64,000 nt of DNA from positions 2,879 through 66,878 of the forward strand of contig CAYLOO010000003.1 of assembly GCA_964385355.1 (NCBI GenBank). Direction: 5' to 3'. Below, one piece after another: positions 41,021-42,899 of the stretch. The translations under genes and the position numbers were made by a program. This DNA is from an uncultured Anaerolineaceae bacterium (lineage in GTDB: Bacteria; Chloroflexota; Anaerolineae; Anaerolineales; E44-bin32). A model generated the notes under the pieces. It was not told the origin of the DNA and ran no database searches. It saw only the letters and a program-made list of their open reading frames with translations. Position 1 is the first letter of the stretch; each line of letters begins with the position of its first letter.

Positions 41021-41845
41021 ATGTCAATGAACCTTCCTGATTTGTTCAAACTTGAAAACCGCGTGGCAGTTGTCACTGGCGCTGCTGGTCTGCTCGGCTC
41101 TGAATTTTGTCGAAGCTTGGCAGAAGCAGGGGCGTCTGTCGTGGCGGCGGATTTAGATGAGGATGCCGCCAAACTGTGCGCTGAAGGACTCCAATCCAAG
41201 GGCTTCAGGGTAGCCCACGCCAAGGTAGATGTTAGAGATCCTGGCAGCGTTGAGGCGTTAATTGAGGGCTCACTCCTTAACCACCACAGGCTAGACATTC
41301 TCGTCAACAGCGCAGCATTGGATCCTAAGTTTGACCCAGCCCATCATGAGCAGAGCTCCAATGCCTTTGAGGATTACCCACTCGAAGCATGGAACCAGGC
41401 TCTGGATGTGAATCTAACCGGCATGTTCCTCACCTCACAAGCAGCGGCGATTCCGATGCTGGAACAAGGCGCTGGGGTGATTATCAATATTTGTTCCACA
41501 TATGGTTTGGTTGGCCCCGACCAGAGGCTCTACGAGCGTGAAGACCAACCTCCTCAATTCAAACCAGCCTATTACTCAGTCACAAAAGCAGGTGTGTTAG
41601 GTTTCACGCGATACCTGGCGACGTACTATTCAGGGAAGAATATTCGTGTCAACGCCCTCACACCGGGCGGCGTTTTCAACGACCACGACGATGAATTTGT
41701 CGAGAAGTACGCCGCACGAACAGTATTGGGCAGGATGGCGCGCAGGGATGAGTTGAATGGAGCGCTTCTTTTCCTGGCATCCGATGCTTCTTCTTATATG
41801 ACTGGAGCGAATCTCGTCGTCGATGGGGGCTGGACGGCTTGGTGA
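41021..41845 (+). CDS. Short-chain dehydrogenase/reductase (SDR)
   Basis: VAVVTGAAGLLGSEF is a TGxxxGxG-type motif; NSAA and YYSVTKAG (YxxxK) are also present. 274 aa. Confidence 0.85.
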   Translation: MSMNLPDLFKLENRVAVVTGAAGLLGSEFCRSLAEAGASVVAADLDEDAAKLCAEGLQSKGFRVAHAKVDVRDPGSVEALIEGSLLNHHRLDILVNSAALDPKFDPAHHEQSSNAFEDYPLEAWNQALDVNLTGMFLTSQAAAIPMLEQGAGVIINICSTYGLVGPDQRLYEREDQPPQFKPAYYSVTKAGVLGFTRYLATYYSGKNIRVNALTPGGVFNDHDDEFVEKYAARTVLGRMARRDELNGALLFLASDASSYMTGANLVVDGGWTAW

Positions 41846-42899
41846 AACCCCGCTGACTGATCAGCGGCTGGGCAGGATTAGAGAACGTGGTCGGAGAGCA
41901 AGATTGTCTGAGAATCGTCAAGGGCTAGAAAACGCGGGAACCTTTATATGCGGTCATCCGAAATCGGGCACGAGTCTTTTGCTCACATTGCTTGATTCCC
42001 ATCCCCAGCTCGTTGTCTACCCGGAAGAGAGTCATTTCTTTAGGCGGTTCAACCTTCAAGCCAGTGGTCTCGAGATCGAGGGAAAGAAGAGATTAGCTCA
42101 TGATCTCATTCTGCATATCTTCGCCTGGAACCAGGATGATCCGCCTCCAAGCCAGTCCGGATTTCCAGACAGAGACTACAGCAGCGTGGATGACACTCGT
42201 GTCCGCGAGGTTTTCTCCGAGTTATTACTCAATCTTAAACATGAACACCACCATATTCTCTCATCTGCCGTGTTAGCCTTCGGGGAGGTTACGCATCAAT
42301 TGAGTCCTGGCACCATGAGGTGGGTGGAGAAAACACCCTACAACGAATACTACGCGGATGATATCTTTGCCTGGTGGCCGGATGCGAACTGTATTCACAT
42401 AGTGCGCGATCCTCGTGATAATTTCTCCTCCTATAGGAGGAAGCAGCCGGATTGGAGCCCGATCTCATTCGCCTATTCGTGGAGACAATCGGTCCAATGG
42501 GGTTGGAAGAATCAGCAACGCTATGGCAACCGCAGGTATTTGCTAATTCGTTACGAGGATCTTGTCGAAGAACCCGACCATATAATCGAAGAGATCATCA
42601 ATTTCCTCGGCATTGACGATGATCCGATCTTGAGACGACCCACCCGAAATGGTGAACCCTGGGGGGGGAATTCCATGTTTGGCGAGTGTTTCGAGGGGGT
42701 AAGCAGAAACCCTATTGGCCGGTATAAAAGTCAACTGAACCAGGAAACGATTGCAATGTTGGAAGCAAGTCTCTTTCCAGAAATGGATCGACTCGGATAC
42801 GGATTGGAGCATCAAGTCGATGCCTCTGTCCGACTTCGATGGCTTTTGAGTAGACTTAAATGGACACGACAGAGTCTTCACTCGTCTCTAACAAAATAG
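41823..42899 (+). CDS. Sulfotransferase (PAPS-dependent family)
   Basis: The 5'-PSB-like motif FICGHPKSGTSLLLTLL and the 3'-PB-like motif IHIVRDPRDNFSSY are both present. ATG 41823 overlaps the SDR gene by 23 nt, so the true start may be an internal TTG. Confidence 0.7.
   Translation: MGAGRLGETPLTDQRLGRIRERGRRARLSENRQGLENAGTFICGHPKSGTSLLLTLLDSHPQLVVYPEESHFFRRFNLQASGLEIEGKKRLAHDLILHIFAWNQDDPPPSQSGFPDRDYSSVDDTRVREVFSELLLNLKHEHHHILSSAVLAFGEVTHQLSPGTMRWVEKTPYNEYYADDIFAWWPDANCIHIVRDPRDNFSSYRRKQPDWSPISFAYSWRQSVQWGWKNQQRYGNRRYLLIRYEDLVEEPDHIIEEIINFLGIDDDPILRRPTRNGEPWGGNSMFGECFEGVSRNPIGRYKSQLNQETIAMLEASLFPEMDRLGYGLEHQVDASVRLRWLLSRLKWTRQSLHSSLTK

Follow-up and report, generated by a model that had tools for sequence, protein, structure and literature searches.

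A predicted PAPS-dependent sulfotransferase in a nonulosonic acid-rich glycan superlocus of an uncultured Anaerolineaceae bacterium

Does an uncultured bacterium of the Anaerolineaceae add sulfate to its surface glycan? The question is raised by a sulfotransferase gene in a 64,000-nucleotide stretch of its genome (the window; positions 2,879 to 66,878 of contig CAYLOO010000003.1, assembly GCA_964385355.1). The window is one co-directional glycan superlocus, and the gene (41904-42899, counted from the first nucleotide of the window) lies among genes for nonulosonic acids (NulOs). We consider it likely that this gene encodes an active, soluble, cytoplasmic O-sulfotransferase that uses 3'-phosphoadenosine 5'-phosphosulfate (PAPS) to sulfate the NulO-rich glycan of the superlocus. 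Enzyme family, motifs, fold, PAPS supply and gene linkage are read from the sequences; that the enzyme is active, what it acts on, when sulfation happens and that the polymer bears sulfate at all are inferred from them. The probable product is a surface glycan that carries sulfate and sialic-acid-like sugars. Gene clusters for sulfated glycans are known from a small number of other bacteria and are undocumented for the Chloroflexota, and the subfamily of the sulfotransferase is uncharacterised.

The sulfotransferase and the start of its gene

The longest open reading frame at this place, 41823-42899, starts at an ATG (41823) and carries the two PAPS-binding signatures that a sequence-only reading of the window had pointed out: the 5'-phosphosulfate-binding (5'-PSB) loop GHPKSGTS and the 3'-phosphate-binding (3'-PB) motif VRDPRDNFSSY. 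Both are present and both are conserved. In an alignment of the protein with 19 homologues at 47-87% identity (20 sequences), the G, H, P, K, G, T and S of the 5'-PSB loop are invariant, as are R-D-P-R-D-N, the second serine and the tyrosine of the 3'-PB motif. Other invariant blocks are PEE, WVEKTPYNE and W-x-GNSMF. The signature of the subfamily is GHPKSGTS, PEE, WVEK[TS]P, RDPRDN and W-x-GNSM[FW], of which the window protein has the variants WVEKTP and W-x-GNSMF. Homologues are 321-345 amino acids (aa) long. Searches with the two Pfam families that the sequence-only reading had proposed for this purpose, Sulfotransfer_3 (PF13469; 3e-29, 103.3 bits, cut-off 27) and Sulfotransfer_1 (PF00685; 7.7e-14, 52.1 bits, cut-off 22), gave matches above cut-off with both. 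NCBIfam has no family for the protein, and its only match there is to NoeE (NF052394), at 29.2 bits against a cut-off of 500.

The AlphaFold model of the protein has a pLDDT of 86 and a pTM of 0.84, and its weak parts are residues 1-31 of the long open reading frame and the loop 284-291. When the model was compared with the PDB by Foldseek, the best 50 matches listed were all sulfotransferase folds (probability 1.0), with TPST1 and TPST2 at the top (TM-score 0.5-0.63), CurM and OLS sulfotransferases also among them, and identities of 15-22%. A profile search of the PDB sequences gave TPST1/2 and the CurM/OLS sulfotransferases as the best matches, at about 1e-14. The invariant PEE of the window enzyme aligns with the GEET motif of TPST1/2, which presumably holds the catalytic glutamate of those enzymes, and the alignment predicts a role as base for the PEE glutamate. 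TPST1/2 (PDB 3ap1, 5wrj, 9wwe) are the best solved matches in sequence and fold and have in common with the window enzyme the 5'-PSB loop, the 3'-PB motif and a glutamate motif after the first strand. However, they are Golgi enzymes that act on peptides, their identity to the window enzyme is only 15-17%, and the W-x-GNSMF motif and the setting in a glycan locus are particular to the subfamily of the window enzyme. With that identity, an E-value of about 1e-14 and no candidate peptide gene in the neighbourhood, the enzyme does not fall in the TPST/RaxST group. Judged by its sequence and predicted fold, the protein is a genuine PAPS-dependent sulfotransferase that looks intact, and its sequence places it in an uncharacterised subfamily of Sulfotransfer_3.

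The gene is shorter than the longest reading frame. An overlap of up to 23 nt with the upstream gene for a short-chain dehydrogenase/reductase (SDR) had been proposed from the sequence, but this overlap exists only in the longest frame. In none of the three closest relatives does the frame stay open further than 20-22 codons upstream of the residues FICGHP, and the sole start common to all three is a TTG 13 codons upstream of FICGHP, equivalent to TTG 41904 in the window. Because the ATG at 41823 is not conserved, the frame is closed in the relatives and only the TTG is common to them, we take TTG 41904 to be the start. A GGAG lies just upstream of this TTG, gene calls in related assemblies place the start 57-88 nt past the SDR stop, and the AlphaFold model shows the first 31 residues of the long form as disordered. 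By this comparison of sequences the gene is 41904-42899, begins 58 nt past the SDR stop and does not overlap the SDR gene.

Two further ideas about the gene found no support. The basic, aromatic C-terminal tail was considered as an amphipathic membrane anchor, and its hydrophobic moment of 0.17 is reached by 69% of shuffles. A recent horizontal insertion was considered on the grounds of composition, and the GC content of the gene (0.491 overall and 0.533 at third codon positions) is like the means for genes of the window (0.501±0.031 and 0.535±0.049).

PAPS supply and gene order in related genomes

The sequence-only reading had seen no gene for ATP sulfurylase or adenosine 5'-phosphosulfate (APS) kinase in the window, and none was found on the whole contig. 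It had also held that a genome with no capacity to make PAPS would argue against sulfation. This objection falls away: the genome encodes a fused ATP sulfurylase/APS kinase (Sat-CysC) of 575 aa, on contig C50 (C50:16430-18157), that passes the NCBIfam equivalog NF004040 with 856 bits against a cut-off of 669. Sat-CysC is the only PAPS synthase of the genome. It sits in a second co-directional glycan locus (G000:C50:1-20000, L085), together with two Bac_transf priming transferases, two family 2 glycosyltransferases (GT2), PMT_2, DUF2142, and CapD-like and epimerase genes.

To judge from the gene content, PAPS appears to be made in this genome only as a sulfate donor, because no reductase for PAPS, APS or sulfite was found in it and because there are only two sulfotransferases, both in the superlocus. 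Neither PAPS_reduct (PF01507, CysH/CysD) nor the NIR_SIR sulfite reductase family (PF01077) had a match in the genome, which is 89.6% complete, and control genomes matched as expected. Across the genome, Sulfotransfer_1 and Sulfotransfer_3 each match two genes, the same pair for both, on contig C3, the contig of the window. An inositol-monophosphatase-family gene, possibly CysQ-like, is also present in the genome, as are unlinked TauE-family genes.

The second sulfotransferase gene lies 3.7 kb beyond the end of the window (G000:C3:70523-71521, the same as L009:3724-4722). Its product is 26% identical to the first, has no W-x-GNSMF motif and belongs to a different subfamily. The gene is between those for a DPM-synthase-like GT2 and an LPG_synthase_TM-like protein, and O-antigen-ligase-like, MraY/WecA-like and GT4 genes are close by. 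Both sulfotransferase genes of the superlocus are embedded among genes for glycan synthesis and export.

A scan of genome contigs yielded 75 related loci, mostly from metagenome-assembled genomes (MAGs) of Anaerolineae, which were searched by tblastn with all proteins of the window; tallies are over 74 of them. The commonest gene order (24 loci) is the counterpart of the GT2 gene at 28605, the sulfotransferase, a second sulfotransferase, and then a GFO/IDH/MocA oxidoreductase (GFO) and Sat-CysC. In 11 loci the sulfotransferase stands between GFO and Sat-CysC, in three between GFO and the SDR, and in two or three between orf16196 on the Wzt side and a PseB-like gene. The order in the window is the SDR, the sulfotransferase and a CMP-nonulosonate synthetase fused to a haloacid dehalogenase-type phosphatase (NeuA-HAD); it is a minority arrangement (5-6 loci) common to the closest relatives, at 87% and 70% protein identity. 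Comparison of these sequences indicates that the sulfotransferase is mobile within the superlocus and that its steadiest partner is Sat-CysC. Of the 74 loci, 45 have a Sat-CysC orthologue (60-69% identity) in their flanks. It invariably lies downstream of the sulfotransferase and on its strand, in 43 loci at a distance of up to about 5 kb and in 13 of no more than about 200 nt. A cassette of the sulfotransferase, the second sulfotransferase, GFO and ATP sulfurylase also stands alone on a short contig labelled Omnitrophica (L142). A NulO gene lies no more than 10 kb from the sulfotransferase in 57 of the 74 loci.

In one relative with the gene order of the window (L138), the second sulfotransferase is split into two frames of 160 and 170 aa (L138:3662-4690) and is probably a pseudogene. 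The common cassette also has a second sulfotransferase, and we rejected orthology between it and the second sulfotransferase of the genome studied here; the two are only 21% identical and belong to different subfamilies.

Co-occurrence with PAPS synthesis was also seen among 150 genomes of the same order. The sulfotransferase orthologue was present in 10, and a full-length Sat-CysC was found in all 10 of these, versus 93 of the 140 genomes with no orthologue (one-sided Fisher p 0.02, with kin that are not independent). In four of the 10 the two genes are 2-6 kb apart. The proposal of the sequence-only reading that the glycan carries sulfate in addition to nonulosonic acids is supported, as far as genomic data can go, by an enzyme that looks intact, by Sat-CysC, by the linkage of the two genes in 43/74 loci and by the finding of no assimilatory use of PAPS or APS in this genome.

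Members with the subfamily motifs are not confined to Anaerolineae. They were also found in Rhodothermales, Owenweeksia, Saprospiraceae and Bacteroidales MAGs and in metagenome contigs, with NeuB or NeuA no more than 8 kb away in five of the six loci with readable flanks. A Bacteroidales locus has the order flippase, sulfotransferase, NeuB, NeuC, NeuA, and contig L140 has the order NeuB, NeuC, NeuA, O-acetyltransferase, PhyH, sulfotransferase. The 20 best Sulfotransfer_3 matches from 400 Bacteroidia genomes, in polysaccharide loci, served as a contrast set. They do not have the subfamily motifs, and NulO genes were nearby in only about 2 of 18 (Fisher p 0.003 against the 5/6 of the subfamily, on small numbers). 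Of all matches to the broad Sulfotransfer_3 profile in these 400 genomes, most have neither the motifs nor NulO neighbours, and they were of use only for this contrast. A phmmer search of the whole library gave 3737 cluster representatives at E<=1e-10, 183 of them also at the stricter E<=1e-30. In one representative, P0133 (662 aa), a GT-A-like domain is fused to a sulfotransferase of the subfamily; the score of this domain against GT2, 21.6 bits, is just under cut-off, and it is not similar to the GT2 encoded at 28605, of which we had considered it a possible homologue. Two other proteins of the family have more than one sulfotransferase domain, four in tandem in P0147 (1298 aa) and two in P0268 (674 aa).

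Mechanism, acceptor and known systems

We postulate that Sat-CysC would supply PAPS, from the same cassette in most relatives and, in this genome, from the second glycan locus on C50. Transfer would depend on the lysine of the 5'-PSB loop and on the arginine and serine of the 3'-PB motif, with the PEE glutamate as base, as in TPST. The lipid-linked glycan would receive its sulfate at the cytoplasmic face and only then be exported by Wzm/Wzt, because PAPS is found only in the cytoplasm, the enzyme is soluble, and an ABC exporter with a Wzt_C domain implies a glycan that is completed in the cytoplasm. Our guess for the acceptor is a NulO residue of the 2-keto-3-deoxynononic acid (Kdn) type or an adjoining sugar, because the neighbourhood recurs with three different types of NulO module. 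We regard it as possible, and on balance doubtful, that the subfamily as a whole is a prokaryotic nonulosonate O-sulfotransferase that places sulfate directly on sugars of the Kdn, neuraminic acid or legionaminic acid type.

The setting of the gene in the window suggests another order of events. The gene is inside a make-and-activate module (SDR, sulfotransferase, NeuA-HAD, NeuB) both here and in the closest relatives, the protein is soluble, and relatives from other phyla adjoin NeuB and NeuA genes. The enzyme might then act on a soluble precursor, a free or CMP-activated Kdn-type nonulosonate that is transferred already sulfated, and not on the assembled glycan. However, the commonest arrangement puts the sulfotransferase right after a GT2 gene and not beside the synthase genes, a fusion of a GT-A-like domain with a subfamily sulfotransferase exists, and no sulfated CMP-sugar donor is known to us from elsewhere. 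We think such an early sulfation unlikely. An acceptor that has nothing to do with the glycan of the locus, such as a peptide tyrosine (as for a TPST or a RaxST-like enzyme), a lipid or a small molecule, seems to us quite improbable. The TPSTs and the CurM/OLS sulfotransferases are indeed the nearest solved relatives by sequence and fold, and in three related loci there is only the sulfotransferase with the PAPS synthase, outside any locus for glycan synthesis. But identity to TPST is low, no candidate peptide or polyketide gene is nearby, most of the related loci (57/74) are NulO glycan loci, with the association recurring in other phyla, and the second sulfotransferase of the genome is in the same glycan superlocus.

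It is also conceivable that the gene is silent or decaying here, as the remnant of a cassette parted from its PAPS synthase. Sat-CysC is not in the same locus in this genome, the second sulfotransferase is split in L138, and the distribution of the gene is patchy. Yet the reading frame is uninterrupted, none of the invariant residues has been lost and the gene resembles the rest of the locus in base composition; the same arrangement is maintained at 70-87% protein identity in other assemblies, and the PAPS synthase, itself intact, has no other user that we can see. A silent or decaying gene is very unlikely.

Several observations weigh against sulfation of the NulO-rich glycan, the reading that we prefer. 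The Anaerolineae loci are mutually homologous, so the counts are not independent. The sequence does not tell which acceptor is used, and the nearest solved structures (TPST and CurM, at only 15-22% identity) belong to enzymes that act on peptides or acyl groups. In three loci the sulfotransferase stands between a GH2 beta-mannosidase gene and Sat-CysC (L049:7467-12884, L057:7474-12819, L064:351-6012); these are the loci that lie outside any glycan-synthesis locus, and no explanation accounts for them. The genome is incomplete, so the absence of the reductases is not proof, and no SulP-type sulfate importer was found in the genome. Lastly, the orthologue is patchy, with none in the 12 genomes sampled from the same family and none in a class-wide sample of 250. 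Because of this patchiness, the sulfotransferase is an optional decoration and not a core function.

Other bacteria offer partial parallels. The cluster for synechan (xss), a sulfated exopolysaccharide of Synechocystis PCC 6803, reportedly has several distinct sulfotransferases and is said to be of the Wzx/Wzy type; we know of no NulO module in it. Compared by description only, it resembles the window in being a bacterial polysaccharide cluster with more than one distinct sulfotransferase. The rhizobial enzymes NodH (with NodPQ), NoeE and LpsS are, as we propose for the window enzyme, carbohydrate sulfotransferases tied to a dedicated PAPS supply, whereas the window enzyme is not in the NoeE family, given its score far below cut-off. 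Closer in layout is the capsule cluster of Cobetia marina KMM 1449, in which PAPS and sulfotransferase genes accompany an ABC transporter and for which sulfate in the polymer was established by nuclear magnetic resonance (PMC11766843). A cluster for a sulfated capsular polysaccharide is likewise described for Vibrio sp. KMM 8419 (PMC11641403). Like the superlocus, these are large glycan clusters with an ABC exporter, glycosyltransferases and one or more sulfotransferases. They also hold dedicated PAPS synthesis genes, which flank the sulfotransferase in 45 of the 74 related loci. They differ in having CysNC, CysD, CysQ and a permease, a Kps-type exporter and rhamnose as the sulfated residue. 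In contrast, the system studied here belongs to the Chloroflexota, has a single Sat-CysC fusion on another contig, is rich in NulOs, encodes many GT-C proteins and is seen so far only as genes.

If the acceptor is a nonulosonate, the functional analogues of the enzyme, compared by description only, would be the sialate O-sulfotransferases WSCD1 and WSCD2. These are the only ones described and have been reported only from deuterostomes (PMC9304399); unlike the window enzyme, both carry WSC domains and are anchored in the Golgi membrane. The window enzyme would in that case be the first sialate-type sulfotransferase outside deuterostomes and would extend the sulfation of sialic acids to bacteria. 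Anaerobic sludge, sediments and mats all harbour abundant Anaerolineae. The extracellular polymeric substances of granular sludge are sulfated and NulO-rich, and the responsible sulfotransferases are stated to be unknown (PMC10483923). With a nonulosonate as acceptor, the subfamily would be one origin of the polymers with both sulfate and sialic acids that have been measured there. The locus family predicts a sulfated, NulO-bearing envelope glycan and provides candidate genes for it, namely the sulfotransferase subfamily, the second sulfotransferase, the GFO oxidoreductase and Sat-CysC. A study of Shark Bay mats detected no genes for sulfotransferases in either of its two Chloroflexi MAGs and grouped both with those that carry genes for degrading sulfated exopolysaccharides (PMC9723792). 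Our search of the literature on sulfotransferases in Anaerolineae and on sulfated Kdn polysaccharides of bacteria found no title or abstract that describes such a system.

Neighbouring genes and other features of the superlocus

The features of the window that bear on the glycan are collected in Table 1. In addition, the superlocus contains genes of the GDP-fucose pathway, a MarR regulator and many GT2 and GT-C genes, and a first NulO module that consists of PseB-like, RmlD-like, NeuB with SAF domain and cytidylyltransferase genes.

Table 1. Positions of the main features in the window and the evidence for each
Feature	Position	Strand	Basis
Wzm/Wzt ABC exporter, Wzt with C-terminal glycan-binding domain	14136..16265	+	ABC2_membrane, ABC_tran, Wzt_C
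GT2 glycosyltransferase	28605..29687	+	Pfam; directly upstream of sulfotransferase in commonest arrangement of relatives, at least 27 loci
GFO/IDH/MocA oxidoreductase	32270..33244	+	Pfam; in relatives part of the cassette sulfotransferase, second sulfotransferase, GFO, PAPS synthase
Intergenic gap, 287 nt, with one-mismatch palindrome look-alike at 40969-40983	40734..41020	.	Sequence scan
Classical SDR, first gene of Kdn-type nonulosonate module	41021..41845	+	adh_short_C2 2.2e-47, synteny
PAPS-dependent sulfotransferase, 331 aa	41904..42899	+	PF13469 match, motifs, start by comparison with relatives, AlphaFold/Foldseek
CMP-nonulosonate synthetase fused to KdsC/Kdn-9-P-type HAD phosphatase (NeuA-HAD)	42961..44211	+	CTP_transf_3 and Hydrolase_3
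NeuB-family nonulosonate (9-phosphate) synthase without SAF domain	44204..45079	+	PF03102 1.5e-80
Capsule_synth (KpsC/KpsS-like) protein, always after NeuB	45094..46722	+	PF05159 1.7e-10, synteny with NeuB
CTP_transf_3 cytidylyltransferase, then D-2-hydroxyacid dehydrogenase, then SDR (triad with third cytidylyltransferase)	49425-51936
MptE-like (DUF115, Maf-type) protein	54650-55477

The gene upstream of the sulfotransferase had been read as an SDR, and this assignment stands on its adh_short_C2 match and on the classical TGxxGxxG, NSAA and YxxxK motifs in its sequence. Its best NCBIfam matches are to dehydrogenases of the sugar-acid type (gluconate 5-dehydrogenase, KduD), all under cut-off. 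Gene order argues for assigning the SDR to the Kdn-type module (SDR, NeuA-HAD, NeuB) and against a specific partnership with the sulfotransferase: of the 42 related loci that have NeuA-HAD, 29 have the SDR immediately before it, and only five have the sulfotransferase between the two. We therefore rejected the SDR and the sulfotransferase as a functional, overlapping pair, in view of the TTG start and of the 29 loci in which the SDR adjoins NeuA-HAD with no sulfotransferase. NeuA-HAD itself has NCBIfam matches to PseF-like, KdsC-like and KDN-9-P phosphatase-like families, all under cut-off. The Capsule_synth protein also matches a glycosyltransferase domain of the BFO_1060 type, under the NCBIfam cut-off, and is a putative ulosonic-acid transferase.

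The 287-nt gap before the SDR gene and the one-mismatch copy of the locus palindrome in it were noticed from the sequence and are both present; the copy reads ATTCAGTATCTAAAT, one mismatch from ATTCA-N5-TGAAT. Allowing up to one mismatch, the window has five matches to this pattern, versus 3.5 expected, and 29 of 100 shuffles reach five. At this chance level the copy was rejected as an operator for the SDR and sulfotransferase genes. No promoter-like site was found on the + strand of the gap.

The triad at 49425-51936 may be a third route to an activated acidic sugar. Its cytidylyltransferase/dehydrogenase pair recurs directly upstream of a sulfotransferase of the subfamily in an Owenweeksia MAG (L079:8348-9975), and a match to the 2-hydroxyacid dehydrogenase at 28% identity lies directly upstream of the sulfotransferase match in a Bacteroidia locus (L121). 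The family of the MptE-like protein is one that we take to be tied to the transfer of nonulosonates onto proteins in other bacteria.

Some smaller features of the superlocus recur in relatives. Within the first NulO module, an Antibiotic_NAT-type N-acetyltransferase gene is followed by one for a DUF4910/DUF2172/M28-like protein (23794-25896), and the pair is found in about nine related loci. Two genes have no Pfam family. One of them, orf16196 (16196-17872), follows Wzt, and in three loci the sulfotransferase is directly downstream of it. The other, orf27542 (27542-28645), is always between the cytidylyltransferase gene at 25924 and the GT2 gene at 28605, in more than 40 loci.

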